From positions 1-16,545 of the forward strand of contig JASLZZ010000088.1 in assembly GCA_030754595.1 (NCBI GenBank): 16,545 nucleotides of DNA. Direction: 5' to 3'. The notes below the pieces were generated by a model that ran no database searches, was not told the origin of the DNA, and saw only the letters and a program-made list of their open reading frames with translations. Position 1 is the stretch's first letter. Each line of letters starts with the position of its first letter. Made by a program: the position numbers and the translations under genes. Source of the DNA: Nitrospinota bacterium (GTDB lineage: Bacteria > UBA8248). Positions 1 to 16,545 of this stretch are shown here, piece by piece.

Positions 1-108
1 AACACTAAGCGGCCACATCAGGGATACAGGAACATGGGGAAGCGGCCCATTGACACCGTGGAGAGGTTCGTTAAATCGTCACGGAAGAAGGCTAGCTGTA
101 CACTTTAG
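1..108 (+). mobile_element. 3' end of IS481-family insertion sequence (transposase C-terminus, right end ...GCTGTACA at 102)
   Basis: Frame +1 from base 1 reads NTKRPHQGYRNMGKRPIDTVERFVKSSRKKASCTL*, matching the (Y)NxxRPHQG...GxxP C-terminal signature of IS481-type DDE transposases. TGTACA at 97-102 fits the TGT...ACA termini of the family. The left end is outside the window. Confidence 0.72.
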
Positions 109-1047
109 GGGAGAGACGCCCGGCTCGTTCGGTGTGATGAGGCCGTAAACCATCGTTGTGAACATGCCTCTGTGCGGGCGGCTGCATAAAGAGGCGTTGA
201 GTGAGGCGAATACGGTTTCGGGCCGTGGATCAATTCCGATGAAATGATGAACGTCGCTGAACAACCTCGCCATGTAAGCGGCGGGAAATCCTTTCCCTGA
301 AACGTCGCCAAGGAATATCGCGGCCCTTCCTCCTTCGATTTCGACGACATCGTACAAATCCCCGCCCACGGCCCGGGCGGCGGAATTGAGCCCCGAAAAA
401 ATATAGTCCTCCTTTTCAATGTGAATTTCCGGTGCGATGAAACTTTCCTGGATGGATTGAGCGGTTTCGAGTTGCTGCTCGATTCGCTCTTTTTCAAGGA
501 GCGATCTGTGCAATTCCGAATGAGCGATGGCGACCGCGGCCTGGTTGGAGAGCGCTACGAGAAGAGGGAGTGAATTGTGGTTGAAGGGAAGTTTTCCCGA
601 AGGGTGACTGAGATTCATGACTCCCAACGTCCGGCCGTGGTAGTTCAAAGGCAGGCTTGCAAATGAACGGGAACGCTCGGGGCTGGAGCGCCGCTCGTTG
701 AATCTGGGGTCGTTGTCGATATCTTCCACGAGGATGGGTTCGCCGGATTCGGCCACCTTCCCAGCGATTCCTTCGCCGGGGACGACCTTGGAGTCTCGGA
801 TTGTTTCTTCTTTGAGTCCGATGGAGTAGGCGATAGCCATGTGCGTGAGTGTATTGTTGTATAAAAGAATCGATCCGTGCTCCGCGCCTATCGTGTCCCG
901 CGCCGTGGAAAGGATGATGTTGAGTGTTTCATCGAAATCGAGAGAAGAGATAAGGGAAGCCGTGCATTCCTGGATTTTGTAAAGATGATCAACCTCGCGT
1001 TCCAAGGCGTTGATTCACTGCTCGAGATGTTTTGTGGAGTCTTCCAT
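103..1047 (-). pseudogene. GAF + PP2C/SpoIIE (RsbU-like) serine phosphatase, disrupted
   Basis: GAF domain (GEGIAGKVAESGEP, SLPL...LGVMNL), coiled linker (QQLETAQSIQ) and PP2C motifs VGGDLYD, LGDVSGKG and MFTTMVYG. The C-terminal PP2C part (AGH and the later DG/DD motifs) is missing and is replaced by the IS end. The probable ATG at 1047 is followed by an in-frame TGA at 1017-1015. The ORF-track call 79..1005 runs into the IS. Confidence 0.8.
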
Positions 1048-1173
1048 GATCAGGTTTAATCTGAAGTCATAGGGCCGTTGGAAATTGGAGGCCTCTTGTC
1101 CGAGCGACGCATTTAACAGCGGGAATCATATCGTGCATTTAAGGCAGCTGGCGGAGCCAGCGGAGGTCCTGGA

Positions 1174-1195
1174 ATTATAATGTTGCTATAGTAAC
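1174..1195. promoter_or_regulatory. Possible divergent promoter elements
   Basis: ATTATAAT (1174-1181) gives TATAAT on both strands. TGCTATAGT (1184-1192) resembles an extended -10 and lies within the near-palindrome GTTGCTATAGTAAC, between divergent genes. Confidence 0.35.
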
Positions 1196-1254
1196 GGGCA
1201 GCGGGATTGTTCGATACGCTCCGGATTTTGGCCGATTTCCCGAGAGAAAAAACG

Positions 1255-2694
1255 ATGATCGAAGCTTTGGCCGATCGATTTCGGAAGATAGCGCCGGATG
1301 TCGATTTTTGGTCCGTTCGGTTTGTCCGGGGGCAAGAGGAGTCGCTTTCCGCCCGGCAGGGAATCATTCATCCGCCGCTAAAATCCGAAAACGAAGGGGC
1401 GATGGTCACAATCCATGACCGGGGCGGGATGGGCTACGGCGCATCGAGCGACCTGACCGAGGAGGGATTGAGGCGGTCTCTCGATGAAGCCCTTCTTTGG
1501 GCCCGGAGGCCCGCTGGCCGGATGGTTCGGGATATTCCTGCGCCTCAACCGGTTGGCCATGTGGGCGAACACAGTAGTCCCGTGGGAACTCCGTGGGGGG
1601 AGGTTCTCTTAAAAGAGAAAATCTGGTTTTTGAAGGAGCTTAACGAGAGGCTCAATCTCGGAGAGAAAATTGTCGAGCGCTTTGCTTCTCTTTTTTATGT
1701 GGAAGAAGAGGTCTGCTACATAAACTCAGTTGGCGCGCGGGTTCGGCAGCGTTTTTCCAACGTGATTCCGTATATGGGGGCGGTTGCGAGCGTCGGCTCC
1801 GAATCGCAGCGGAGAACTAATGGCGGAAGAGGATTCGCCCGTCAGGGGGGATGGGACGCTGCTCACCCGGAGAAGATGCTGGAGGCGGCTCCCGTCATCT
1901 CCGAGGAAGCCGAGCAGCTCCTTTCGGCCCCGAATTGCCCCGATGGGCGAATCGACCTGATTCTGGCTCCCGATCAAATGATTCTTCAAATCCACGAATC
2001 CATCGGTCATCCCCTTGAAATCGATCGGATTCTGGGGGACGAGCGGAATTACGCGGGGACGAGTTTTGTCACGCTCGATGATTTTGGAAAGTATCGATAC
2101 GGATCGAATCTCTTGAATGTCGTTTTCGATCCCGGAGAAACCGGACAGCTTGCGAGCTACTCGTTTGATGACGATGGAACCCCCGCCGCGCGGGAGCATC
2201 TGATCCGAGATGGGATTTTGCTGCGGGGGTTGGGCGGCGCGGTCTCCCAGATGCGGTCCGGTGTGCCGGGGGTTGCTTGCTCGCGGGCAGTGGGCTGGAA
2301 CCGTCCGCCGATTGATCGAATGGCGAATATCAATATCGAGCCGGGCGATTCCGGTCTGGATGAGATGATTGCCTCTGTTGAACGCGGGGTATTTATGAAG
2401 ACCAACTGCTCATGGTCGATAGACGACTCCCGGCTGAAATTTCAATTTGGTTGCGAGTGGGCCCGTTTGATTGAAAATGGAGAGCTGACGGGGGTGGTGA
2501 AAAATCCGAACTACCGCGGGATGACGCCCGAATTTTGGCGAAACCTGAAGGCGGTGGGAAACCTCGCCACTTATGAAATATTGGGGACTCCCAACTGCGG
2601 AAAAGGAGAGCCCAACCAGATGATTCGAGTGGGTCATGCAACTCCAGTGTGTTTGTTCGGCGGTATCGAAGTCTTTGGCGGCGAATCGGCATGA
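1255..2694 (+). CDS. tldD: TldD-family metalloprotease (catalytic subunit)
   Basis: HExxGH motif (HESIGHPLE), FDDDG, PIDRMAN and C-terminal CGKGEPNQ. ATG at 1255 is preferred over the TTG at 1207. Confidence 0.92.
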   Translation: MIEALADRFRKIAPDVDFWSVRFVRGQEESLSARQGIIHPPLKSENEGAMVTIHDRGGMGYGASSDLTEEGLRRSLDEALLWARRPAGRMVRDIPAPQPVGHVGEHSSPVGTPWGEVLLKEKIWFLKELNERLNLGEKIVERFASLFYVEEEVCYINSVGARVRQRFSNVIPYMGAVASVGSESQRRTNGGRGFARQGGWDAAHPEKMLEAAPVISEEAEQLLSAPNCPDGRIDLILAPDQMILQIHESIGHPLEIDRILGDERNYAGTSFVTLDDFGKYRYGSNLLNVVFDPGETGQLASYSFDDDGTPAAREHLIRDGILLRGLGGAVSQMRSGVPGVACSRAVGWNRPPIDRMANINIEPGDSGLDEMIASVERGVFMKTNCSWSIDDSRLKFQFGCEWARLIENGELTGVVKNPNYRGMTPEFWRNLKAVGNLATYEILGTPNCGKGEPNQMIRVGHATPVCLFGGIEVFGGESA

Positions 2695-4013
2695 GGGAGA
2701 TATTCGACCGGATTGCCGATCATTCGATCGGTCTCTCGCGGGGCGAGGAGGTCCTTGCCTGCGGGTTCTCGGGCGAGGAATCCGGGTTTGTGCGCCTGAG
2801 CCGGAGCGCCGTTCGCCAGGCGGGGTCGGTTCGTCAAATGTTTTTGCAATTGGAGTTGATATCGGGCCTTCGCCACGCCCAGGCCAGCGTCTCTCTGTCG
2901 GGTCGTTGGGGGGAAGATCGTTCCCGGGTGGAGAGAGTTGTCGTTGAATTAAGGGAGATGTTGCCCGATTTGCCCGAGGACCCCCATCTGATATTTGCTT
3001 CGGATAATGGTTCGAGCGAGCAAGCGGGAGAAGATAATCTTCCTCCTCAAGGCGAAGCGCTCGACGTTGTTCTGGAGGCCGGCCGGGGGAAGGACCTGGT
3101 CGGGATTTTTTCGTCGGGATGTATTTGCGCGGGATTCGCCAATTCGTTCGGACAGCGAAACTGGTATTCTTCGTTCAGTTTCAACCTGGATTGGACTTTT
3201 TATCACCGGGGCGATAAAGCCGTAAAAAGTCAGTACGCCGGTAATTCATGGGAGCCCTCGGTATTTCAAACGAAAATTCAAATCGCCGAGGCTCATCTCG
3301 ATGCCCTCAAGCGCCCGCCGAAATCCATTCCTCGGGGCAGGTACAGGGTGTACCTGTCGCCCGCCGCGCTGACGGAATTCGTGGGGATGGTTGCCCGGAG
3401 CGGTTTCGGGCTGCGGGCTCGCCGGACAAAACAAACCTCTTTGCTCAAGATGATCGAAGATGGCAGATGTCTCAATCCGATTGTCCATTTGAAGGAGAAT
3501 ACGCGGGAAGGTTTCGGTCCGGGGTTTCAGTACCAAGGATTCCCGAAACCTCCCGAAGTTCCCCTGATTGAAGCGGGAGCCCCTGGCGGCAGCCTGGTTT
3601 CTCCGCGTTCGGAGAAAGAGTGGGGGGTTTCGTCGAACGGCGCTTCCGACCGGGAGTTTCCCGAGGCGGTGGATATGGCGGCCGGCGAAATACCATCGTC
3701 GAGCGTACTCGGGCGATTGGAGCGGGGAATATACATTGGCGATCTTTGGTACCTGAATTATTCCGACCTGGTGTCGTGCCGGATGACCGGTCTTACACGT
3801 TTCGCCACCTTTTGGGTGGAAGGCGGGGAGATTCAGGCGCCGATCAACGTAATGCGCTTTGACGAAACGGTCTACCGTGTGTTGGGGGAAAACCTGATTG
3901 GTCTGACCCAGGAGCGCGATCTCTTTCTCGATACGGGGACCTATCAATCGCGGTCAACCCGAAGCAGCCGGATGCCGGGAGCGCTTGTCGAGGACTTCTC
4001 CTTCACGCTCTAA
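2691..4013 (+). CDS. TldE/PmbA-family protein (non-catalytic partner of TldD)
   Basis: ATGA overlap with the tldD stop (2691-2694). It lacks HExxH and carries LWYLNY..., MTGLTRFATFWVEGGEI..P..MRFDE and the C-terminal F.FT typical of the second TldD/PmbA gene. Confidence 0.88.
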   Translation: MREIFDRIADHSIGLSRGEEVLACGFSGEESGFVRLSRSAVRQAGSVRQMFLQLELISGLRHAQASVSLSGRWGEDRSRVERVVVELREMLPDLPEDPHLIFASDNGSSEQAGEDNLPPQGEALDVVLEAGRGKDLVGIFSSGCICAGFANSFGQRNWYSSFSFNLDWTFYHRGDKAVKSQYAGNSWEPSVFQTKIQIAEAHLDALKRPPKSIPRGRYRVYLSPAALTEFVGMVARSGFGLRARRTKQTSLLKMIEDGRCLNPIVHLKENTREGFGPGFQYQGFPKPPEVPLIEAGAPGGSLVSPRSEKEWGVSSNGASDREFPEAVDMAAGEIPSSSVLGRLERGIYIGDLWYLNYSDLVSCRMTGLTRFATFWVEGGEIQAPINVMRFDETVYRVLGENLIGLTQERDLFLDTGTYQSRSTRSSRMPGALVEDFSFTL

Positions 4014-4035
4014 AGCTGGATAATATTCCAACGTG

Positions 4036-4869
4036 TTATTTGGATTTGAATTGTTTTATCAGGCGGGCCTTTTGCGTTTTCGTCAACCCCTTGAATGCGC
4101 CGGATTGTTTGAGTTTTCTCTTGGCCGATTCGGACATGTTCTTCATGGACCTCAGATTTCCACCCGTTATCATTCCGCCCGAAGTCCCGAATTTGTCTTT
4201 AACCCCGAGATGTTTCATTCCGAACGCTTTGATGTCGTTCCGCATGACCGTCATAAAAATGTATTCGACATAGGATGACGGTTTGTCCGCCATGAATAAA
4301 AAAAGGCCAAAGGCGGTAATTGTGCAGATGACTAAGGCCGCGCCCATCTGAACGGCGGTTTTCCAGACCTTTGAAAGCCTCGCGTAGAGAATGAAAAGCG
4401 ACGTCCGGGATTTTCGCCTCTTTTTCCGAGAGCGGTGCTTGGAGTCGCGATCGGCCGCGGGCGCCGGGCTCTCACCGGATTGCTTGGCTTTAAGAGAGGC
4501 CTCATCGGCCATGCTCTGGAATTTTTCTTGAAAGAGGGAGCACTCCGGGAAGGAACCGAGGCAAAGATCAGCCTGTCTGCTTCGCGGCATGGCGGTGTAT
4601 GGAACTCTTATCCGGCGGAGCTTCTTGAATTTCGTGCGCTCTTTTGCGTAGCAGACATTTTCCCTCGAAGGGCGGTCGAAGGGTGTGCTCTGCCCCTTCC
4701 GGGAGCCCAGATACGGACATGGGCGGGAGGGAGATGCGGAAGGAGAAGACAAGGACGCCCCGGCTGCGAGGGTTGCCGTGTCGCCGGAAATCTCCCCTGT
4801 CTTGGAAACTGAATTGGACAACCCGGTGCCTTTTCCCGATTGTTCGCATTCCCCAAGCCGAAGCCGCAC
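4036..4869 (-). CDS. Hypothetical membrane-anchored protein with a 4-Cys motif
   Basis: 277-aa ORF fills the gap. It has CPYLG...NVC...LCLG..PEC, a basic stretch KHRSRKKRRKSR and one hydrophobic segment (GAALVICTITAFGLFLFM). The start is uncertain (TTG at 4821 is an alternative). Confidence 0.65.
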   Translation of the reverse strand: MRLRLGECEQSGKGTGLSNSVSKTGEISGDTATLAAGASLSSPSASPSRPCPYLGSRKGQSTPFDRPSRENVCYAKERTKFKKLRRIRVPYTAMPRSRQADLCLGSFPECSLFQEKFQSMADEASLKAKQSGESPAPAADRDSKHRSRKKRRKSRTSLFILYARLSKVWKTAVQMGAALVICTITAFGLFLFMADKPSSYVEYIFMTVMRNDIKAFGMKHLGVKDKFGTSGGMITGGNLRSMKNMSESAKRKLKQSGAFKGLTKTQKARLIKQFKSK

Positions 4870-4989
4870 GGCGGTCCGATCCGCCGAAACTAAATATAAT
4901 ACTAATTGGAATTCATATCATCCCGGTTGCCGGAGCGGCGTTTTTACCCTTTAGGGGAGGTCATTCCGGGGTTGCGGCGGCGGACGCGA

Positions 4990-5751
4990 TTATTGGCGAA
5001 ATAAGTCGTCCTCCTTTTTGCGGAAGAGCCGCGAGGCGGGTTCTTCCCCCTTTTTATAGGAAATTCCCCGCAATATCGCCGCGGGAATCCCCTCGGCGCC
5101 CTGACCCATGACGATGCTCGCCGCCGCGGCCAGCTCGTCGGCCTGGGCCAGTAGGGTGATCTCGAGCGGGCGCCCCGACCGATCGGCCTCGCCTCTCAGA
5201 TCGACGAGGGGCTCGAGGCCCGCGCAACCGATCGAAACCCCGACGACGCCGCTCCTGAAGGCGCGCCCCTGGGTGTCAACGATCAAAACTGCGGGCCGGA
5301 CCCCATCAATCCTCTCCAGCCCCGCGCGGATTTTTCGCGCCGAGGCGTCGGCGTCCTCGGGCAGGAGCAGAACCGTATCCCCGTCCTCCCGCAGGTTCGA
5401 GCGGTCAACCCCTCCGTGCGCGCACACCGCCCCCGAGCGGTGCTCGACGATCAGCGCCCGCTCTGAGGCGACGACGACCTCGTTCGATTCACGCAGGACC
5501 GTCTCGACGAGCCGAGCGTCCCTTCCGTTCCGGCGGGCGATTGTGAGCGCCTCCTTCGAGGGCTCGACATCCGAGAGCCGGACAAACCGGCCCTCGGTCT
5601 TGCTGACGATTTTTTGAGCGAGGGCGATTACGTCACCGTCGATGAGTCCGAGGCCGCCGGCCTCCATCGCCGCCCATAGGATCGCGGCCAGATCATCTCC
5701 GGGCCGTATTTCGGGAATTCCCGGAACCGGGATCAGTTCGGCCATAGTCAT
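4990..5751 (-). CDS. cofE: Coenzyme F420-0:L-glutamate ligase
   Basis: PEIRPGDDL, QKIVSKTEGR, GVDRSN, LLPEDADASA, DTQGRAFR.G and ADELAAAAS..MGQ..EG.P. The start is ATG 5751 (or 5745), just after cofC. The longer ORF-track N-terminus overlaps cofC. Confidence 0.95.
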   Translation of the reverse strand: MTMAELIPVPGIPEIRPGDDLAAILWAAMEAGGLGLIDGDVIALAQKIVSKTEGRFVRLSDVEPSKEALTIARRNGRDARLVETVLRESNEVVVASERALIVEHRSGAVCAHGGVDRSNLREDGDTVLLLPEDADASARKIRAGLERIDGVRPAVLIVDTQGRAFRSGVVGVSIGCAGLEPLVDLRGEADRSGRPLEITLLAQADELAAAASIVMGQGAEGIPAAILRGISYKKGEEPASRLFRKKEDDLFRQ

Positions 5752-5761
5752 GAGGTTGTGA

Positions 5762-6415
5762 TCATGCGGTAGTGATCGCGGACAGCCATTCCGGGATCGG
5801 CACGCCTTTTTCGGCGAGGAGCGCCAGATCCGACGGCGTGTCCACGTCGAGGGAGAAACCGGGATTTTCGAACCGGAAAAAATCCAACCCTTCCGCCAAC
5901 GCCGCTTCGCAGTGGCGCTCGAAACTGCTCTGCCCAAATGAAAAGGAAAGGCCATCGGGCGGCTCGAGCAGGAGTCCGTTCGTCCCCCCGTCGGGTGAGG
6001 GGACGAGGACGGCGCGGCCGCCGGGGGGATTTCTTCTCTCGCCCTCGGCGAGCATCGCCTCTACGTCGGGAGGCTCGAGCGCGGGAAGATCGGCGGGAAC
6101 GATTAGAATCGTCCGGGCGTTTCTTTCGAGCGCCCACCCACGCCCCGTCTCCAGGTCGTCGTTCAAGTCCCGCGCCGGACACCGGATGCCCGCCGCGCCG
6201 TTCGAAAGTGAGAGAGAGAGGACGGAGGCGCCGTCGCTGAGGACGGCGATTTCATCGATCCCCCTCGCCGCCTTGAGGGCGTGCAAAACGCGCTCGAGCA
6301 TCCACCTGCCCAGACCGGCGCGGGCTTCGTTGCTCAGGGCGCTGGCCAGGCGGGACTTTCCCGTTTCGAAATCCCGGGCGGGGACGAGCGCGACGCATGG
6401 GTGTCCAGCGGCCAT
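5762..6415 (-). CDS. cofC: 2-phospho-L-lactate/PEP guanylyltransferase (CofC/FbiD)
   Basis: KSRLA, PADLP, DGGTN, FG..SF..H and DVDTPSDL motifs, plus cof gene context. Confidence 0.93.
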   Translation of the reverse strand: MAAGHPCVALVPARDFETGKSRLASALSNEARAGLGRWMLERVLHALKAARGIDEIAVLSDGASVLSLSLSNGAAGIRCPARDLNDDLETGRGWALERNARTILIVPADLPALEPPDVEAMLAEGERRNPPGGRAVLVPSPDGGTNGLLLEPPDGLSFSFGQSSFERHCEAALAEGLDFFRFENPGFSLDVDTPSDLALLAEKGVPIPEWLSAITTA

Positions 6416-6462: not shown

Positions 6463-7428
6463 TCAACCGGCTGGAGACTGGTTCCTGATTTCCTCGGCGA
6501 AACCCAATACTTCGATCGCAAGGCGTTTCTTGGACGGCGTGTCGGTCATCACGCTCGGCGCCGTTCGCGCCGTGATGCCCCGCTCCCCGAAGGCGGGCAA
6601 CAGGGTCGCGTCCTCATCGTCGAAAACGAATCCATCGATGAAATCGCGCAGTATCTCCGCCACCCCCAGGGCGGACACCTCATGCCCCAGGCTTTTCATC
6701 ATATCGGCGGCCGGGCCCCTGAGGGCGGAGCTGCCGATGATGGGGCTCACCCCGATTCGGGGAATCTCAGGGCGCCGCAATCTCTCCTCGATTTCCCCGA
6801 TGGCGAGAATCGGCCCCAGACTGACGATGGGGTTCGAGGGGCAATACACGATGGTTCCCGCCGAGTCGATGGCCTCGGCGGCCTCGGGGGTGGCCTTCGC
6901 GGTCTCCGCTCCCTGAAACCGGACTCCCGTCACGCGCGGGCGCGTCCCCCGGGCCACGAAATAATCCTGAAATTCGAGCTCTCCCTCGGGAGTTTGAACG
7001 CGGGTGGCGACGGGGGAGTCCGTCATCGGGAGGACCCGTGACCGGACGCCCAGCGCACCGCACAGCTCGGCGGTCGCCTCGGTGAGGCGCGCTCCCTCGG
7101 ATAGGCGCTGGGTCCGGCGAATGTGGGTGGCCATGTCCTTGTCCCCCAGACGGAACCAGGTGGGCCCCCCGTAGCGCCCGAGGAGGTCGAGGGCGCCGGT
7201 GGTGTCGCCCTTGATCCCCCAACCTTGGGCGGGGTCCGAGAGCCCGGCGAGGTTGTACATCACGGTGTCGAGGTCGGGGCTGATATGAAGCCCGTGGAGA
7301 GTGAGGTCGTCCGCCGTGTTGACGATGACGGTGAGGGCGCCGGGCGGAAGGGCCGCGGCGAGCCCGACGGCGAGTTTCGCGCCGCCCACTCCGCCGGCGA
7401 GGGCGACGACGGGGGCAGAGGGATTCAT
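6463..7428 (-). CDS. cofD: LPPG/EPPG:FO 2-phospho-L-lactate transferase (CofD/FbiA)
   Basis: LAGGVGGAK, NTADD, ISPDLDTVMY, WFRLGDKDMATH, FQDYFV, PSNPIVS and GPAADMM. The ATG at 7428 overlaps the upstream TGA (ATGA). Confidence 0.96.
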   Translation of the reverse strand: MNPSAPVVALAGGVGGAKLAVGLAAALPPGALTVIVNTADDLTLHGLHISPDLDTVMYNLAGLSDPAQGWGIKGDTTGALDLLGRYGGPTWFRLGDKDMATHIRRTQRLSEGARLTEATAELCGALGVRSRVLPMTDSPVATRVQTPEGELEFQDYFVARGTRPRVTGVRFQGAETAKATPEAAEAIDSAGTIVYCPSNPIVSLGPILAIGEIEERLRRPEIPRIGVSPIIGSSALRGPAADMMKSLGHEVSALGVAEILRDFIDGFVFDDEDATLLPAFGERGITARTAPSVMTDTPSKKRLAIEVLGFAEEIRNQSPAG

Positions 7429-8078
7429 CGGCGGATGATCTCGGGACGCGGCGGCTCCTTGGGCGGCGGCGGCGCGGCCGGGTGACCGGCGAGAATCAGC
7501 GCGCGCGGCATCCAGTCGGCCGGAAGATCGAGGGCCTCCCGCGCCGTCTCGGGGCAAAACAGGGGAGCGCACCGCCACACCGATCCGACCCCTCCGGCGG
7601 TGAGGGAGAGCATCAGGTTTTGGAGCGCCCCGCCGAGGCTGTGCTCCGCCATCAAGTGCTCTCTCGTCTGTTTTTCGGGGTCGCCGTATTCGTCGAGCTC
7701 ACCGTAGGAGAGCGCGGCGAGGATGAGGACGGGCGCTCCGGTCAAAAGACGGATGCTCCCCTCGTGCCGGCGGCGGCGCTCGGCCTCGGGCACGCCCTCG
7801 GCCGCCATGTCGCGCAGAAAATCCCGCCCCATCTCCCCGGCGAGTTTTCTCCTCGAGGCCTCGGAGGAGAGAACGCAAAACCTCCACGGGGCGCTCCCGT
7901 GCGGGCTGGGGGCAAGGCAGGCCGCCGCGATGGCGCCCTCGACGAGGGTGGGATCGACGGGCTCGTCCGAGAAGCGCCGGACGGAGCGACGGCCGGCGAG
8001 GGCGTCCGCGAGCGATATCGCATCGAGCGCGGGAGAAAGCGCCGTCTCGCTTATTCCGGTGTTCGGTCTGGCGTCCAT
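7425..8078 (-). CDS. Stand-alone nitroreductase resembling the FbiB C-terminal domain (FbiE-like dehydro-F420-0 reductase)
   Basis: RRSVRRFSDEPV, APSPH..PWRF, D...EGVP, GGALQNLML, GVGSVW...LF and LDLPADW.P parallel the FbiB C-terminal domain. It is translationally coupled to cofD. The start at ATG 8078 is approximate. Confidence 0.85.
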   Translation of the reverse strand: MDARPNTGISETALSPALDAISLADALAGRRSVRRFSDEPVDPTLVEGAIAAACLAPSPHGSAPWRFCVLSSEASRRKLAGEMGRDFLRDMAAEGVPEAERRRRHEGSIRLLTGAPVLILAALSYGELDEYGDPEKQTREHLMAEHSLGGALQNLMLSLTAGGVGSVWRCAPLFCPETAREALDLPADWMPRALILAGHPAAPPPPKEPPRPEIIRR

Positions 8079-9496
8079 CCTGGAGGCGCTCCCCCTTGCT
8101 CCGGTGCGGGCGGGGGCGGAAGCTTTCGCTTCTCCCCGGGAGGCGGGTCCCCCGGATCGCCCGGTATGGGATTTCCCGCCATGTAGCCCGCCACCTGCAC
8201 GGGCCGGTCTTCTTCCTGGTAGGCGGCGGCGAGGCACTCTTCCAACTCGGCGGAGGTTTTGGGGCTGTCCGCCATTCCCGCCGCCGCGCAGGAGGCCTCC
8301 TTCCAGGGTTGATACTGGAGAAGACCGGGAGCCGTTCCGCTGCGGCGGCCGCCCTCGGGAACGCGCCTCCGCTGCCGCCGCGCGAGTATCTGAAGAATGT
8401 TCCAGGCGCGTTTGTTCTCCCGGATCGGCATCGTTTCGATCTGACCGCTCCCCTCGAACTCCCGCCATATTTCCTCGGCCTTCCGGGTTCGAAGAACCAC
8501 GATGGTCCAGCCCCGCGTGCCCGCCCCGCCGCAGGAGATGTCGGCGAGTTCGGCCGAAAAATCGCCGCAGTGGCTGCACTCGGGCCGCTGGTAGTTCTCC
8601 ATCGCTTCCTGGAGTGGGAGGGTCTCCATCTCACCGTCTTTTTTATAGATGAGGACATCGCCCTTTACGTTGAACTTGGTCACCTCGGTGAGAGGAATCC
8701 CCATTTCCTTTTCGATCTTTTCGGTCATCAACTCGGGCCTGAACACCTCGGTGCAGAAAAGACCGATCTGGAGCGCCACCCTGTCCTGATAGCCGCGCAG
8801 AAACCCTCGTTGTTTCTCGATATGCTGGGGCCGTTTTTTGTGACTGAGCAGAAACGAGGGGTCGATCAGCTCCATTTTGCGGAGCGGGGTGATCTGACAG
8901 GGAACGCCGACGAAGGCGACTTTGCCGAGGTCTTTCTCCTCGGCTTCCCAGAGCGCGAGGTTGTTCGGGCAGTAGGTGTACCAGCTTCCGGCGCTCCCAC
9001 TGGTTTCCGACTCGGTGGTGGCCAGCTTCGGGCTCGGGAAGCAGGGCGGGTCGTCCTCGCCGACCGCCGAGACGGCGGCGCCGTCGATTCGCCCGCTCTC
9101 CAGCGCCCACGAGAGGAGGGCGGTGACGATTCCCCCGTCCTGCGCCCGCTCCATGATGTCCTCGCGCCGGGTTCGCGCAACGAAAACGTGCCGGTAAACT
9201 CCGAAAATCCCCTCCCAGGGGCGCTGGTCCCCGAAATGGGCGTCCCGCAGATGAATCTCCCGCGGCCACAACCTCGGGCAAGCCGAGGCGCAGACATCGC
9301 AGCCGATCCCCTCGCTGATTCCGCAAAAATCGAACGCGGCGGTCTTCTTGGCCGTCTGCTTCGGGTAGCCGTCCACGTATTCGATGACGTTGTGAGGGCA
9401 CACCAGAACGCAGATGCCGCATTGGCAGCAACTTCCCGCCTCGACCACATCGTTCATCATGTCCTTGAACAGGGGATGAAAAAAAATGTCGCTCAC
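8051..9496 (-). CDS. FrhB/FdhB-family F420-dependent oxidoreductase subunit with N-terminal 2x[4Fe-4S] ferredoxin domain (FpoF/FqoF-like)
   Basis: CCQCGICVLVCP and C-x7-CDVCASACP cluster motifs. FrhB motifs AQDGGIVTALL, GSWYT, VGVPCQ, IGLFC and CSHCGDFSAELADISCG. GTG start preceded by GAGGT. Confidence 0.9.
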   Translation of the reverse strand: MSDIFFHPLFKDMMNDVVEAGSCCQCGICVLVCPHNVIEYVDGYPKQTAKKTAAFDFCGISEGIGCDVCASACPRLWPREIHLRDAHFGDQRPWEGIFGVYRHVFVARTRREDIMERAQDGGIVTALLSWALESGRIDGAAVSAVGEDDPPCFPSPKLATTESETSGSAGSWYTYCPNNLALWEAEEKDLGKVAFVGVPCQITPLRKMELIDPSFLLSHKKRPQHIEKQRGFLRGYQDRVALQIGLFCTEVFRPELMTEKIEKEMGIPLTEVTKFNVKGDVLIYKKDGEMETLPLQEAMENYQRPECSHCGDFSAELADISCGGAGTRGWTIVVLRTRKAEEIWREFEGSGQIETMPIRENKRAWNILQILARRQRRRVPEGGRRSGTAPGLLQYQPWKEASCAAAGMADSPKTSAELEECLAAAYQEEDRPVQVAGYMAGNPIPGDPGDPPPGEKRKLPPPPAPEQGGAPPGWTPDRTPE

Positions 9497-9516
9497 CGCT
9501 ACCTCGGGCAGGAAAA

Positions 9517-10740
9517 TCAGATTTTCGAGGGAAGGCCCAGGGAGAGCAGCTTCTCGCCTCCGGAGGCGCCGTCCCCGAGCATCGCATCGTCTCCGGGCCG
9601 GGGGGGGCGGTAGCGCGGATCGTCCTCGGGGATGCGCTCGTAGGTCGTCGAACGCTGCACCGGAACGCGGCCGGCGGCGGCGATGGCTTCCCGGAATTGC
9701 CCGACGGTCAGGGCCTGGCCGTACTCGCCCCCAGACTCCCGCGTGATGTTCTCCTCGATCAAGGTGCCGCCCATGTCGTTGACGCCGAGCGACAGCGCTT
9801 TTTTCGCGGCGGCGATTCCGATTTTGGGCCAGGCCACCTGGATGTTCTTGATGTGGTCCTTGAAAAAGAGGCGCCCCACGGCGTGGATGCGGAAGATATA
9901 GTCGAGGTCCGCCACATCCGAGATGTCGAATTCGGCGCCCATCTCATTGTCGTAGGGAATGAACGGCAGGGGGACGAACTCGGTGATGCGCCCGCCGCTG
10001 TCGGGCGGGGCCTCCTCCTGGATGGCGCGGAGGATTCCCATGTGTTCGGCCACGTCGGCCGGCGACTCGATGTGTCCGTACATGATGGTCGAGGTAGTGG
10101 GGATTCCGACCGCGTGCGCCGTGCGGATGATCTCGCACCAGCGCTCCACCGGGATGCGCATCGGGCTGATCATTTTCTTCACGCGCTCGACGAGGATTTC
10201 GGCGGCTGTTCCGGGTATCGAGCCCAGGCCCGCCTCCTTGAGCCTCTTGAGAATCACCTCGAGGGGAAGGCGGGTCTTGCGCTGGATATGATCGATCTCG
10301 GCCGGCGAGTAAGCGTGCATATGGACGCCGGGGATTTCCTCCCGCGCCAGCCGCAGGACTTCCTCGTAGCGGTCGAGCGATATGGCGGGGTTGAGGCCCC
10401 CCTGCATGCAGATTTCGGTGACTCCGAATTCCCTGGCGCGGGCGAATTTCCCGCGCAGGACATCGTCGTCGTGCGTGTAGGCGTCCGGGTCCTTGGGCCG
10501 GCGGTAGAAGCCGCAATACTTACAGTCCGTGTAGCAGACGTTCGTGAAGTTGACGTTGGCGTTGACGATGTAGCTCACCTCGTCGCCGACGGCGGTTTTC
10601 CGCTCGGCGTCGGCGAGGGCGTTGAGCCGATCGTTGGCTCCGGTGGAGGGATCTTCGATCAGCGCACCGGCGCTGGAAACCGAAAGGGGCTCCCCGGCTT
10701 CGAGGGCGTCGAGGATTTCTGCCGTGGAGGGAGAGGTCAT
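9517..10740 (-). CDS. cofH: FO synthase subunit CofH (radical SAM, tyrosine lyase)
   Basis: NVNFTNVCYTDCKYCGF (CX3CX2C), MQGGLNP, HAYSPAE, SIPGTAAEIL, TSTIMYGHIE, EFVPLPF and NDMGGTLIEENITR. ATG 10740 has a GGAG RBS and overlaps the cofG stop. Confidence 0.9.
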   Translation of the reverse strand: MTSPSTAEILDALEAGEPLSVSSAGALIEDPSTGANDRLNALADAERKTAVGDEVSYIVNANVNFTNVCYTDCKYCGFYRRPKDPDAYTHDDDVLRGKFARAREFGVTEICMQGGLNPAISLDRYEEVLRLAREEIPGVHMHAYSPAEIDHIQRKTRLPLEVILKRLKEAGLGSIPGTAAEILVERVKKMISPMRIPVERWCEIIRTAHAVGIPTTSTIMYGHIESPADVAEHMGILRAIQEEAPPDSGGRITEFVPLPFIPYDNEMGAEFDISDVADLDYIFRIHAVGRLFFKDHIKNIQVAWPKIGIAAAKKALSLGVNDMGGTLIEENITRESGGEYGQALTVGQFREAIAAAGRVPVQRSTTYERIPEDDPRYRPPRPGDDAMLGDGASGGEKLLSLGLPSKI

Positions 10741-11738
10741 GTCGTCTCCAGCGCGCCGGCGCAGGCTTCGGCGCGGCGGGCGAGTTGAGCGTCGAGCGCG
10801 GCGGCGGCCGGGCCGGGACACCAGTCCGCCTCGATGAATTCGTCGTAGATCGGCATGCGCGGCCGGAGCGTCATTTCGCTCTGGGCCAGCCGCTCGCCGA
10901 GTGCGCCCAGTTTCGGCCACGGCCGGTCGGGGTTGATGTAGTCGGGCTCGTGGGCGACGCCGCCGATATCGTCCGCCCCGGCGGCGAGAAGCGCGGGAAG
11001 GTCGTCCACCAGATTCGGCGGCACCTGGACGTGGACGCCGGGCATGAGACGGCGGACCTCGGGAATGAGCTCGGCGATCTCCTCGTCCCCGGGCCTCGTC
11101 CACCGGGCCATCGGGGTTTCCTCCTGGGGATTGAGCGGCTGGAGGATGATCTCCTGGACATGGCCGTGGCGGGCGTGGCTCTCGGCGATGGCCTCGAGCG
11201 CCCGGACACGCTCGCCGGGGCTCTCGCCGATGCCGATGAGGATTCCCGTCGTGAAGGCGATGCCGATGCGGCCGGCGGCCTCGAGGCTGGCGAGGCGGAG
11301 TTCGGGGGTTTTTGTCGGCGCCGAGCGGTGGGCGATGCGGGTGGCCTCTGGGCTGACGGTCTCGACCATCATGCCCATGCTCACGTTATAGGGTTTGAGG
11401 AGTTCGAGTTCCCACTCCTCGAGGGTGCCGATGTTGGTGTGGGGGAGGAGGCCCATATCGAGGTAGCGGCGGCAGATCTCGGCGATGTAGGCGGCGTAGG
11501 AGCCGAAGCCCCAGCCGGCGAGCTGGTCGCGGAGACCGCGGTGGCGATCGATTCCCTCACCGGTCATGATCAGGGCCTCGACGGCGCCCTCCTCGAGGGC
11601 CGCCCGGCCGATCCGCTCGCACTCATCGAGGGACGCCATGATCGGCGCGTCGCTCCTGAAGCTGCAGTAGCCGCACCGGTTCACGCACCACAGTGTCGTC
11701 GCCAGCGTGAAGTTCGCGGTATAGGTAATGGTTCGCAG
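10737..11738 (-). CDS. cofG: FO synthase subunit CofG (radical SAM)
   Basis: The in-frame extension upstream of the ORF-track start gives ITYTANFTLATTLWCVNRCGYCSF (CX3CX2C), followed by LPHTNIG, NVSMGMMVET, FTTGILIGIGE, HVQEIILQ, QVPPNL, DDIGGV and DYINPDRPWP. The start codon is uncertain; CTG at 11738 is proposed. Confidence 0.9.
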   Translation of the reverse strand: MRTITYTANFTLATTLWCVNRCGYCSFRSDAPIMASLDECERIGRAALEEGAVEALIMTGEGIDRHRGLRDQLAGWGFGSYAAYIAEICRRYLDMGLLPHTNIGTLEEWELELLKPYNVSMGMMVETVSPEATRIAHRSAPTKTPELRLASLEAAGRIGIAFTTGILIGIGESPGERVRALEAIAESHARHGHVQEIILQPLNPQEETPMARWTRPGDEEIAELIPEVRRLMPGVHVQVPPNLVDDLPALLAAGADDIGGVAHEPDYINPDRPWPKLGALGERLAQSEMTLRPRMPIYDEFIEADWCPGPAAAALDAQLARRAEACAGALETT

Positions 11739-14111: not shown

Positions 14112-15239
14112 ATGTCTACAGTCCAGGCCGCCACGATGACCCAGCCCGGTGAAATCGCCCTGCGCGAGTACCCCAAACCCGAAGTGGGCGAGGACGCGCT
14201 TCTGTTAAAAGTATCGGCGGTCGGGGTATGCGGTTCGGACAAGCATATGTTCAACGGGAAAATGAATCTCTCATGGCCGGTGATACCGGGCCACGAGTTC
14301 AGCGGAGTCATCGAGTCCATCGGCCCCGAAGCGAACCGGTCGATGAAGGTGGTGGGCGGCCCGCTCAGAGAGGGGGACGCCATCACCGTCGTGCCGGGGA
14401 CCCAGGCGTGCGGAAAGTGCTGGTACTGCATCCACGTTCCCCACCGGCCCCAACTCTGTCCGAACCGCAGCGTGTTCGGTTTCAGGACCTCGGCCGAGGC
14501 GCCTCATCTCTTTGGGGCCTTCTCGGAGTATGTCTACGTACCGGGCGACGCCTTCGTCCTCAAGGTCCCCGAGGGCCTCTCGATGGAACGCGCGGCCATG
14601 ACCGAGCCGCTCGCGGTGGCCCAGCGCGCGGTCAGCCGCGCCCTCTCGCCGGGGGTGCCCTACGCGGGCGAGGGGTTTGGCGCGGGCTCCCGGTGCGCGG
14701 TGATGGGGGTGGGGCCGATCGGACTGTTCGTGGTGGCCTCGCTCCGGAACATGGGGGCGGGGGAGATCATCGCCGTCGATTTGTCGGAGGAGCGGCTCGT
14801 GTTTTCCCAAAAATTCGGGGCGACAAAAACGGTGAATCCCTCGGCGCTCTCCCGCGAGGAGCGAAAGGAGCGGGTGCTCTCGTGGACGGACGGGGTGGGT
14901 CCCGATGTCGTGGTCGAGGCGGCGGGCGTTCCTGCGCCCTTCGAGGAGGGGCTGGACCTGGTCCGCCGGGGGGGCAAGCTCATCGAGGTGGGCCACTACG
15001 GAGACCCGGGCGGGGTCGAGATCCGGCCCCACCAGGTCTGCAATAAGGATGTGGACATCCTCGGCTCCTGGGCCTATCCCCAGGTGCAATTCGAGGCAGC
15101 GCTGGACATGCTCTCGAGAACCGCGCTACCCATCGACGACATCATCACCCACCGGATGCCGCTCTCCCAGGTCCAGGCGGGCCTCGAGATTACCGGCACG
15201 GGGGACTGTCTGAAGGTCATCCTGGCCCCGGACGAGTAG
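14112..15239 (+). CDS. Zinc-dependent alcohol/polyol dehydrogenase (MDR superfamily)
   Basis: GVCGSD, GHE, structural Zn motif CGKCWYC...C, Rossmann GVGPIG with downstream Asp (VDL, suggesting NAD preference), and an AGGAG RBS. Confidence 0.93.
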   Translation: MSTVQAATMTQPGEIALREYPKPEVGEDALLLKVSAVGVCGSDKHMFNGKMNLSWPVIPGHEFSGVIESIGPEANRSMKVVGGPLREGDAITVVPGTQACGKCWYCIHVPHRPQLCPNRSVFGFRTSAEAPHLFGAFSEYVYVPGDAFVLKVPEGLSMERAAMTEPLAVAQRAVSRALSPGVPYAGEGFGAGSRCAVMGVGPIGLFVVASLRNMGAGEIIAVDLSEERLVFSQKFGATKTVNPSALSREERKERVLSWTDGVGPDVVVEAAGVPAPFEEGLDLVRRGGKLIEVGHYGDPGGVEIRPHQVCNKDVDILGSWAYPQVQFEAALDMLSRTALPIDDIITHRMPLSQVQAGLEITGTGDCLKVILAPDE

Positions 15240-15346
15240 CCGCCGCCCCCTTCGTTTTTCCCTTCCGGGCACCGAATCCGGCACGGGAAATGCGTATTTA
15301 ACCAGTATCCGTGTGGGCCCTCCCTTCTTGAACGGAGGGTGGTTCC

Positions 15347-15811
15347 ATGACGCGATTCAGTCCCAAAAAAATTATAGCGCCTGTCGATTTCTCCAAATTC
15401 AGCATCGATGCCCTCAGGGCCGCCCTGGATATCTCCGAGATCCGGGGGGCCAAAGTGACGGCTCTCCATGTCACCGAGGAGCCCTCGATGCCCGACACCT
15501 ATGGGCATTCCACTATGCTCCACGCGAACTGGCAGTTGATCCGCGAGCGGGTTTTCGAGGAGTCGAGGGCCGAACTGGAAGCCCTTACCCTCGAGGCGGG
15601 CGACAGCCAGGAGGTCAAATGCGAATCCATCATGGGCGATCCGACGAACGAAATCCTTCGAATGGCCAAGGATGGGAATTTCGATCTGATCGTGATGTCC
15701 ACCCACGGCCGGACGGAGCTCAACTGTCTTTTGATGGGCAGCGTGGCCGAACGCGTCATTCGTCACGCCCAGTGCCCGGTTTTGGTTGTTCGCGGAAACG
15801 GGAAAAGCTAA
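15347..15811 (+). CDS. Universal stress protein (UspA family)
   Basis: KIIAPVDFS, LHV, GDP..EI, DLIVMSTHGRT, GSVAERVIRHAQCPVLVV, and a GGAGG RBS. Confidence 0.94.
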   Translation: MTRFSPKKIIAPVDFSKFSIDALRAALDISEIRGAKVTALHVTEEPSMPDTYGHSTMLHANWQLIRERVFEESRAELEALTLEAGDSQEVKCESIMGDPTNEILRMAKDGNFDLIVMSTHGRTELNCLLMGSVAERVIRHAQCPVLVVRGNGKS

Positions 15812-16007
15812 AAAAATTGGCCGGGGAATCTTATGGGGGGAAGAGCGATTGGGACATTGTGGCCGATTCCTGCGGCCTTTTTGAGACAGGGTGGCGCCGT
15901 CCCAAAATACTCATTTGAAGGGCTACTATAAGCCGTTGATTAGTTAGGAGTTATATATCGGAAAATCTGGATGATTCGCCCGAAACCGTGGCGTAATCCT
16001 TGCACTT

Positions 16008-16046
16008 AGTTTGGGCATGAAGTTTGGGCATGAAGTTTGAGCAGAT
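16008..16046. repeat. 13-bp tandem repeat (2 perfect copies plus 1 degenerate)
   Basis: AGTTTGGGCATGA AGTTTGGGCATGA AGTTTGAGCAGAT. Confidence 0.85.
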
Positions 16047-16169
16047 TGAAAAGCAGTACCCGGAAATTGACGGATTCAGGATTTGGCGGGCGACACGTTG
16101 AGCGGGCTGCTGTAGACGGTGCCTGAGGGAGGGCCGACCCAACTTGATGTGCTGTCCGCCAATTAATTT

Positions 16170-16481
16170 TGAATCCCCCGAATTCGCAAACCGCATGGCG
16201 GGAGTGAGACCATGGAGACCCGTCCCCTCGTCCTGGCCGTTTCGCTGGAGCCGTTCATCGATCTGACGCCCGTGGCGCTACGCCTCCGGGCAGAAGCGGT
16301 TGGCTTGTCCAGCGAACTTTCGGCGGGGATCGATGTGATTACGGTCAAGAGTCCCGGGTTCGAGGTCACCGGATTCGAAACTGCCGAGGAGAAGCTGATC
16401 TTCTCCCTCAAAACCGGTCCATGCTGAATGGGAGTATTTTCGGTATTCTTTCGGTGTGACCGCCCAATCCGGGGGGATTCA
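16170..16481. mobile_element. Possible 312-bp MITE-like or internally deleted IS segment bounded by inverted repeats
   Basis: TGAATCCCCC (16170-16179) and GGGGGATTCA (16472-16481) are perfect 10-bp inverted repeats with weaker similarity further in. The ends are TG...CA, as in IS3-family elements. No target duplication is evident. Confidence 0.45.
16212..16427 (+). CDS. Small hypothetical protein (71 aa)
   Basis: ATG preceded by GGGAG, with protein-like composition. No family recognised. Confidence 0.35.
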   Translation: METRPLVLAVSLEPFIDLTPVALRLRAEAVGLSSELSAGIDVITVKSPGFEVTGFETAEEKLIFSLKTGPC

Positions 16482-16482
16482 G

Positions 16483-16545
16483 ATGAGCAAGAAGCGTCAT
16501 ACACCTGAGCAGATCATATCCAAGCTGAGAGAAGCAGAAGTTCTT
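16483..16545 (+). mobile_element. IS3-family transposase OrfA, N-terminus (truncated by the window edge)
   Basis: Translates MSKKRHTPEQIISKLREAEVL, the typical start of IS3-family (IS407-like) OrfA HTH proteins. Confidence 0.85.

Follow-up and report, generated by a model that had tools for sequence, protein, structure and literature searches.

The window analyzed here is the entire 16.5-kb contig JASLZZ010000088.1 (16,545 nucleotides) of a 3.55-Mb, 96.9% complete Nitrospinota genome. At positions 8051–9496 on the minus strand it contains a frhB-like gene, for which, together with its product, we use the name FrhBL. With moderate confidence, we favor the reading that FrhBL is a stand-alone oxidoreductase that links F420 to a one-electron carrier and is used for F420 regeneration. 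FrhBL would be a soluble member of the F420-reductase (FrhB/FDRC) family, in which F420 or F420H2 would bind to the FrhB core and exchange a hydride with bound FAD. The FAD would split the electron pair into single electrons, and these would run through the [4Fe-4S] cluster of the core and two N-terminal [4Fe-4S] clusters, to or from a one-electron partner. This partner would most likely be a low-potential ferredoxin or flavodoxin, or an enzyme docked by the ferredoxin domain. FrhBL would thereby join the F420 pool to iron-sulfur electron carriers and regenerate F420 in Gram-negative producers of the cofactor, the majority of which have no Fno. The original prediction, made from the sequence of the window, had proposed co-expression of cofactor synthesis either with a stand-alone F420:ferredoxin-type oxidoreductase or with an input module for a complex-I-like enzyme. 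The first proposal fits the family placement, the linkage to cof genes, the lack of an adjacent partner subunit, and the negative searches for Fno, Fgd over the cut-off, and FrhA in the host genome; its flow direction and its partner are tentative assignments.

As had been predicted, two ferredoxin-type cysteine motifs and an FrhB domain are present in one protein. The gene starts with GTG, with a GAGG ribosome-binding site 9 nt upstream, and encodes 481 amino acids. From the open reading frame (ORF), the translation, the Pfam and NCBIfam matches, and the best solved relatives (8RIU_B and 8RJA_E), we annotate the product as a putative stand-alone F420-reductase-type iron-sulfur flavoprotein. 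The N-terminal ferredoxin domain (residues 18–75; window 9272–9445, minus strand, as for all parts of the gene) carries two [4Fe-4S] motifs, both read from the sequence. Motif 1, CxxCxxCxxxCP, is formed by C23, C26, C29, and C33, and motif 2, Cx7CxxCxxxCP, by C58, C66, C69, and C73. The Pfam 4Fe-4S dicluster and Fer4 models match this region weakly and under their gathering scores. All eight cysteines are conserved in each of the 34 aligned family members, and FrhBL aligns from residue 12 with the ferredoxin domain of 8RIU_B. The F420-reductase (FrhB) core follows (residues 96–380; 8357–9211). Within it, FrhB_FdhB_N covers residues 104–181 (8954–9187; E = 2.7e-20, 72.7 bits vs. a gathering cut-off of 22) and FrhB_FdhB_C covers residues 192–360 (8417–8923; E = 7e-36, 123.8 bits vs. 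a gathering cut-off of 23.3). With both gathering thresholds exceeded, FrhBL belongs to the FrhB/FdhB/FpoF superfamily (PF04422 and PF04432; the 'FDRC' of PMC8498797). Over its whole length, the core can be aligned with FrhB of three methanogens (E ~1e-40), and the motifs QDGGIVT, PCQ, FC.E.F, and C..C.D..AELAD are kept between them. QDGGIVT is the putative FAD site. Furthermore, C200 (PCQ), C248 (FC.E), and C307 and C310 (C..C) align with cysteines of 3ZFS_C, 9R51_B, and 6QGR_B; these residues are invariant in 34 of 34 sequences and are candidate [4Fe-4S] ligands. By homology, FrhBL would bind both FAD and F420 and transfer a hydride between them.

Beyond the core lies a C-terminal extension (residues 378–481; 8054–8365), which shows in the family alignment (columns ~400–500) and is present in the long-form clade only. 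Its end carries a conserved Pro-rich motif, PIPGDPG..P..GEKRKLPPPP.P..GGAPPGW, which is missing from the short-form clade. When this motif was sought in the other ORFs of the genome, FrhBL proved to be its sole carrier. The AlphaFold2 model (mean predicted local distance difference test score, pLDDT, 81.7; predicted template modeling score, pTM, 0.85) gives the tail a pLDDT of 85–91 for residues 401–430 and 91 for residues 461–470, and it predicts that the tail is largely ordered on the protein itself.

The placement of FrhBL among known structures is based on hidden Markov model (HMM), phmmer, and Foldseek rankings. In the sequence search, the best solved relative was 8RIU chain B (E = 4.3e-44, query residues 12–372), followed by 8RJA chain E (7.5e-43). 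Among the solved structures, FrhB of three methanogens matched at ~1e-39 and Fsr at 1e-33 from residue 13; FdhB matched at 4e-7, and HCAR (5DQR) at 1.7e-6 over residues 96–209 only. Foldseek with the AlphaFold2 model gave the same ranking. The TM-scores normalized to the target were 0.78–0.79 for 8RIU_B and 8RJA_E over 381–384 columns and 0.80–0.83 for FrhB over the core, while those for FdhB and HCAR together were 0.42–0.53 (HCAR, 0.42–0.49, E = 1.7e-15). These rankings support the placement of FrhBL in the F420-binding branch of the FrhB family rather than in the HCAR or polysaccharide-locus branch, as had been anticipated. That FrhBL is a non-F420 member of the fold, either an HCAR/BciB-like tetrapyrrole reductase or a polysaccharide-locus FrhB-like protein, is thus highly improbable. 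The fold is shared, and HCAR 5DQR is recognized both by sequence and by Foldseek; however, the matches to F420 enzymes are better by at least 30 orders of magnitude (1e-39 to 1e-44 vs. 1.7e-6 for HCAR, which stood for the HCAR/BciB branch in this comparison), the co-occurrence with cofH and cofD is near-complete, and no chlorophyll or polysaccharide genes were found near frhBL.

Within the F420-binding branch, FrhBL forms a separate subfamily that is neither FrhB nor FpoF proper, because the equivalog cut-offs of both are not reached. For FrhB, the scores were 186.6 bits vs. a cut-off of 331.5 (TIGR03289) and 209.7 vs. 269 (NF006807), and there was no NiFeSe_Hases match in the genome. For FpoF/FqoF, they were 109 bits vs. 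475 (NF040616) and 109.8 vs. 444 (NF006808). FrhBL does have the layout of the ferredoxin-domain F420 reductases of the 8RIU_B, 8RJA_E, and Fsr-N type, in which a 2x[4Fe-4S] domain precedes the FrhB core in one chain.

The search for relatives covered a protein space of 5.8 billion, in which 988 matches were found among 8000 candidates scored. The best 120 matches are 453–508 amino acids long, with 66–100% identity and 93–100% query coverage, and the identity across phyla is 54–89%. A set limited to one genome for each species yielded 181 relatives; the locus counts given here cover 80 of these. The 80 loci are labeled Nitrospinota, Tectomicrobia, Gammaproteobacteria, Burkholderiales, Binatia, Myxococcota/Deltaproteobacteria, and Thermodesulfobacteriota, and the closest relatives are labeled Nitrospinota or marine nitrite-oxidizer metagenome-assembled genomes (MAGs). 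A midpoint-rooted tree of 34 members resolves two clades with 100/100 support each: a long-form clade of about 470–500 amino acids from Nitrospinota, Tectomicrobia, and Pseudomonadota, and a short-form clade of about 390 amino acids from Binatia and Myxococcota. In three genomes, an in-frame stop was observed inside the FrhBL match (G006:C1:1936032-1937453, TGA; G075:C45:6705-8120, TAA; G077:C231:34015-35187, TGA); possible causes are an assembly error, a pseudogene, or a match that extends beyond the true stop.

In the window, FrhBL is built into a tightly packed operon of F420 biosynthesis genes, in the order cofG-cofH-frhBL-nitroreductase-cofD-cofC-cofE on the minus strand. The predicted spacing holds: the cofH stop lies at 9517, leaving a 20-nt gap to frhBL, and the ATG of the nitroreductase lies at 8078, 28 nt inside the 3' end of frhBL. 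A survey of synteny, which the original prediction had named as a check, showed that the linkage to cof genes is conserved. Of the 80 loci, 29 are cof-linked in all, and 22 of these have the gene order of the window, in most cases with ADH, aroE, and CoA-transferase genes ahead of it. The other seven comprise the Burkholderiales loci L052 and L055, with cofE-D-C-G-H-FrhBL and no nitroreductase, four loci in which FrhBL is convergent with cofE-D-H-G, and one with cofH and cofG nearby. For the remaining 51 loci, the available flanking DNA contains no cof gene, and several of them are on short contigs.

Co-occurrence extends to these unlinked carriers. Among 30 genomes with cof-unlinked FrhBL, cofH exceeded the curated cut-off in 27, with a 28th in which cofH is split at a contig end, and cofD exceeded its cut-off in 27 of 30. 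In the window's phylum, FrhBL was found in 48 of 51 genomes and cofH over the cut-off in 49 of 51; one genome lacked both, two had cofH only, and one fragmented genome had FrhBL only. In an even sample of Gammaproteobacteria, FrhBL was found in 0 of 300 genomes and cofH in 12 of 299. All 12 cofH-positive genomes carried cofD (11 over the cut-off), and none carried an FrhB_C domain. FrhBL thus depends on F420, and F420 synthesis is independent of FrhBL, because the 12 sampled gammaproteobacteria with cofH and cofD do without any FrhB_C domain.

The same data bear on the idea that FrhBL is a biosynthetic helper. In that role, FrhBL would be the electron donor for the radical-SAM clusters of CofG and CofH or for the FMN with which the neighboring nitroreductase would reduce dehydro-F420-0. 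The position of frhBL between cofH and the nitroreductase, with its short gap and its overlap, and the retention of this three-gene order in 22 of 80 loci speak for such a role, as does, weakly, a small RNA-library contig across the cofH/frhBL junction, for which DNA carry-over is possible. However, the 12 gammaproteobacteria noted above carry cofH and cofD without any FrhB_C domain, the Burkholderiales clusters L052 and L055 lack the nitroreductase, and in 51 of 80 loci the available DNA contains no cof gene. Moreover, a nitroreductase of the FbiB C-terminal type (E ≤ 1e-15) was found in none of five FrhBL-positive gammaproteobacteria, and in none of five FrhBL-less ones. The helper role is disfavored, and we consider it improbable.

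The favored reading, a stand-alone enzyme, draws on the neighborhoods of FrhBL, in which clusters were counted only where Pfam-confirmed (the crude ORF caller misread some high-GC genes). No frhA, frhG, fdhA, fpo, or nuo gene is among the large ORFs of the window with a family match, in agreement with the original prediction. A partner dehydrogenase of the carbon monoxide dehydrogenase (CODH) or Fwd type is likewise not encoded in the window, and no conserved partner subunit adjoins FrhBL across the 80 loci. At the cof-unlinked loci, the neighbors vary by lineage, are of housekeeping or unrelated function, and include serA/DUF2333, GST/autotransporter/luciferase-like genes, a hydantoinase/rubrerythrin operon, pheT/IHF, and uvrC/comEC/PAS response regulator genes. 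In three Pseudomonadota loci (L035, 1–2445; L037, 3989–6913; L038, 4912–7857), the gene immediately upstream of FrhBL, in the same orientation, encodes a 980-residue xanthine-dehydrogenase-family protein. This protein matches Fer2, Fer2_2, a hammerhead domain, and two MoCoBD domains, with no FAD-binding domain matched, and is possibly an electron donor without a flavoprotein of its own.

The stand-alone mode is drawn from missing conserved neighbors. In a rival reading, FrhBL would be an obligatory component of a specific dehydrogenase encoded elsewhere, such as a pyruvate or 2-oxoglutarate:ferredoxin oxidoreductase, a molybdo-hydroxylase, or a CODH. FrhBL would dock to it via the ferredoxin domain and make that enzyme F420-reducing, as the archaeal zeta and FwdI subunits do. 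The solved relatives with the FrhBL layout are described in PMC11493965 as subunits anchored by the ferredoxin domain, and archaeal FrhB paralogs are described in PMC9012536 as clustering with pyruvate:ferredoxin oxidoreductase, CODH, HdrA, and GltS. The Fer2-Fer2_2-MoCoBD hydroxylase without an FAD domain and the conserved C-terminal motif, which could be a docking element, point in the same direction. However, no neighbor is conserved across lineages, the Mo-hydroxylase adjoins FrhBL in only 3 of 80 loci, and the predicted tail is largely ordered on its own protein. Longer fused forms were not found at E ≤ 1e-20, a search that counts as weak evidence. We judge an obligate docking subunit to be rather unlikely.

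A further alternative, corresponding to the second proposal of the original prediction, is that FrhBL acts as an FpoF/FqoF-like input module on a complex I that lacks NuoEFG, passing F420H2 electrons to the quinone pool or, in reverse, making F420H2. The host genome has two NuoD loci and one NuoF. The second NuoD, on contig C13 at 42610–43347 (L091, L092), is matched in two pieces (model positions 1–172 and 196–271) and lies ~15 kb from the canonical nuoD-nuoF. Because the genome has only one NuoF, this second locus is read as a complex-I-like operon without the NADH module. The same split-match second NuoD occurs in Tectomicrobia, Binatia, and Myxococcota carriers, and the FpoF models match FrhBL at 1e-31. 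However, the FpoF equivalog score is 109 bits vs. a cut-off of 475, with only residues 235–349 matching best, and frhBL was never found beside nuo genes in the 80 loci. Furthermore, among FrhBL-positive Pseudomonadota, 10 of 13 have a single NuoD and 2 of 13 have none, and in 5 of 5 genomes tested, NuoF lies 0.6–0.7 kb from the single NuoD. These counts rule out a headless complex I as the conserved partner. The expected second NuoD locus without NuoF is present in the host, but the pattern is not general across the FrhBL-positive Pseudomonadota, and an input module is unsupported as a general explanation; we disfavor it and regard it as slightly less probable than the helper role.

The relation of FrhBL to Fno is consistent with the reading of FrhBL as a stand-alone F420-regenerating enzyme. 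In the host genome, profile searches found no Fno and no Fgd over the cut-off and no [NiFe]-hydrogenase large subunit (FrhA), as the original prediction had suggested checking, and the single FrhB_C match is FrhBL itself. Among F420-capable gammaproteobacteria without FrhBL, Fno (TIGR01915) exceeded the cut-off in 10 of 12, and in 9 of these 10 the distance from fno to cofD or fbiC is at most 1.6 kb. In contrast, Fno was found in 0 of 14 FrhBL-positive Pseudomonadota genomes, which are mostly labeled Gammaproteobacteria. Fisher's exact test gives p ~1e-5 for this difference, a value that is overstated because relatives are not independent and kinship was ignored. In the window's phylum, both cofH-positive genomes without FrhBL carry Fno. 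Overall, Fno is present in 14 of 78 FrhBL-positive genomes vs. 12 of 14 FrhBL-less cofH-positive genomes. Collectively, we read these results as FrhBL taking the place of Fno in the cof operon and being the sole recognizable F420-reducing route in most carriers. Where the two enzymes coexist, they would link F420 to different pools. The Fgd model also matches 22 luciferase-like (LLM family) sequences of the host genome, in every case far under the cut-off; these are candidate F420-dependent oxidoreductases, which would use the F420H2 made here.

The electron flow is most likely toward F420 reduction. The standard potential of F420 is about −340 mV, and bacterial 2x[4Fe-4S] ferredoxins lie lower; this direction is favored because electron transfer from reduced ferredoxin to F420 is downhill. 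Several observations weigh against a stand-alone, F420-regenerating FrhBL. Fno over the cut-off shares a genome with FrhBL in 8 of the 48 carriers of the window's phylum and in 6 of 16 carriers from Burkholderiales, Binatia, Myxococcota, and Tectomicrobia, and 2 of the 12 FrhBL-less F420-capable gammaproteobacteria have neither enzyme. The missed cut-offs for FrhB (186.6 of 331.5 bits) and FpoF (109 of 475 bits) mean that the substrate of the FrhBL subfamily could differ, FAD and F420 binding being predicted through homology. Every characterized relative that shares the layout belongs to a larger complex as a subunit, and aerobic heterotrophic carriers would need a source of reduced ferredoxin. 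In addition, many of the genomes are fragmented MAGs, and kin among them are not independent.

A bolder form of this reading holds that FrhBL is the missing F420-regeneration enzyme of Gram-negative producers, a free ferredoxin (or flavodoxin):F420 oxidoreductase that replaces Fno. In Nitrospinota, it would couple F420 to the low-potential ferredoxin pool of the reverse tricarboxylic acid cycle, and the ordered, clade-specific Pro-rich tail would act as a new element, for regulation or for docking. We consider this extended form possible and put it forward tentatively.

FrhBL bears on an open question, namely why bacteria outside Actinobacteria use F420 and how they do so. A 2021 review (PMC8498797) gives the distribution of the FrhB-type family as Euryarchaeota only and reports no experimental work on the role of F420 outside Actinobacteria. 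According to Braga et al. 2019 (bioRxiv 10.1101/670455), F420 producers without Fno or Fgd exist, and new regeneration systems are expected. Widespread, highly conserved, and tied to cof genes, FrhBL is a concrete and good candidate for such a system in Gram-negative bacteria. A full-text literature search for a bacterial FrhB-type protein in cof operons returned only archaeal or unrelated papers, with the limit that papers and supplements outside the searched text may mention bacterial homologs. The fold, the layout, and the chemistry of the FrhBL type have been described in archaea; the literature found does not describe a bacterial clade without partners, its place in F420 operons, its negative association with Fno, or its clade-specific tail. 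Moreover, carriers of FrhBL include abundant marine nitrite oxidizers, and FrhBL is a possible single-gene route to ferredoxin-driven F420H2 regeneration in biocatalysis.

The other genes of the operon, all on the minus strand, were assigned as follows. cofG, an FO synthase subunit, spans 10737–11738 (NCBIfam NF004884, 317.6 bits, over the cut-off). Its radical-SAM CxxxCxxC motif (WCVNRCGYC; window 11684–11738) has its first Cys two codons upstream of the first in-frame ATG, GTG, or TTG, and a non-standard start is proposed because of this position; the best candidate is the CTG at 11738, which follows a G-rich stretch. cofH, also an FO synthase subunit, spans 9517–10740 (TIGR03551, 393 bits, over the cut-off), and its ATG overlaps the cofG stop (ATGA). 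The nitroreductase (7425–8078) is of a stand-alone FbiB C-terminal type; it matches TIGR03553 at 3.9e-43, under the equivalog cut-off, and Pfam Nitroreductase at 4e-23, and it is a candidate dehydro-F420-0 reductase. Similarly, cofD (6463–7428; TIGR01819, 311 bits), with an ATGA overlap with the nitroreductase stop, cofC (5762–6415; TIGR03552, 141.7 bits), and cofE (4990–5751; TIGR01916, 270 bits), which lacks a fused nitroreductase domain, are all over their cut-offs.

Outside the operon, the left flank contains a GAF-SpoIIE (PP2C-type phosphatase) regulator fragment and a TldD/PmbA-type metalloprotease pair (79–1005, minus; 1207–2694, plus; 2649–4013, plus). The ORFs at 4036–4869 (minus), 15074–15766 (minus), 15313–15918 (plus), and 16163–16504 had no Pfam or NCBIfam match. 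Between 4990 and 15300 the window is richer in GC than on either side: the GC content is 0.663 in the cof operon, 0.651 in the CoA-transferase/aroE/ADH block, and 0.552 in both flanks (1–4900 and 15300–16545), with a genome mean of 0.601. There is a step at ~5 kb, and the operon is near the 97th percentile of the genome's 5-kb windows. The order of the ADH-aroE-CoA-transferase-cof block is conserved in many Nitrospinota loci. We considered recent transfer of a GC-rich island and do not claim it, because the GC content of the operon is within the range of the genome and the block is conserved across the phylum.

In 19 marine or seawater DNA runs, which come from 11 studies, the cof operon was found in near-identical form (at least 87% of sampled words); 9 of these runs may be the source of the sequence. 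In one metatranscriptome library, seven small low-depth contigs lie on the operon, and one of these spans the cofH/frhBL junction (9473–9621); most of frhBL is uncovered. A second RNA run searched for the operon gave nothing. With DNA carry-over possible, these contigs are a hint only and too thin to establish transcription.

Compared with known F420 enzymes, FrhBL shows several degrees of likeness. To Fno (TIGR01915) the analogy is functional only: Fno stands in the cof clusters of FrhBL-less gammaproteobacteria as FrhBL stands in the cof operon here, but its fold is unrelated, and it transfers a hydride directly to NADP without Fe-S clusters. FrhB, the beta subunit of the F420-reducing [NiFe] hydrogenase (3ZFS/4OMF, 6QGR, 9R51), aligns through its residues 2–265 with residues 97–379 of FrhBL, including the conserved cysteines and QDGG(I/V)VT. 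In contrast to FrhBL, which has its own ferredoxin domain, FrhB has none at its N-terminus, as FrhG supplies the clusters; FrhB also requires FrhA and FrhG, neither of which was found in the host genome of FrhBL. The N-terminal half of Fsr, the F420H2 oxidase domain (7NP8/7NPA), resembles FrhBL in having a ferredoxin domain and an FrhB core in one chain, whereas Fsr is fused to a sulfite reductase half and no such fusion was found for FrhBL. FpoF is primarily a subunit of the Fpo complex. Its soluble form in Methanosarcina, which the tables of PMC8498797 list, reportedly acts as a ferredoxin:F420 oxidoreductase (Welte and Deppenmeier 2011), and it sets a precedent for a lone FrhB-family protein that connects ferredoxin with F420. 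FrhBL scores far under the cut-offs of the FpoF models.

The closest likeness is to two proteins of Candidatus Ethanoperedens thermophilum, the ACDS zeta subunit (8RIU chain B) and an Fwd-complex subunit (8RJA chain E), which Lemaire et al. 2024 (PMC11493965) describe as biochemically proven F420-reductase subunits. The differences from FrhBL are evident. These archaeal proteins are fixed subunits of CODH or Fwd and are encoded with their partners, whereas FrhBL is bacterial and without a conserved partner gene. They have 359–370 amino acids with a 20-residue tail; in contrast, the long form of FrhBL has a 100-residue tail with the Pro-rich motif. FrhBL also carries, unlike them, an insertion of ~18 residues after the RKM motif, and the identity is ~29%. 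In the order of their parts, they are alike, and they are the best matches of FrhBL in both sequence and fold.

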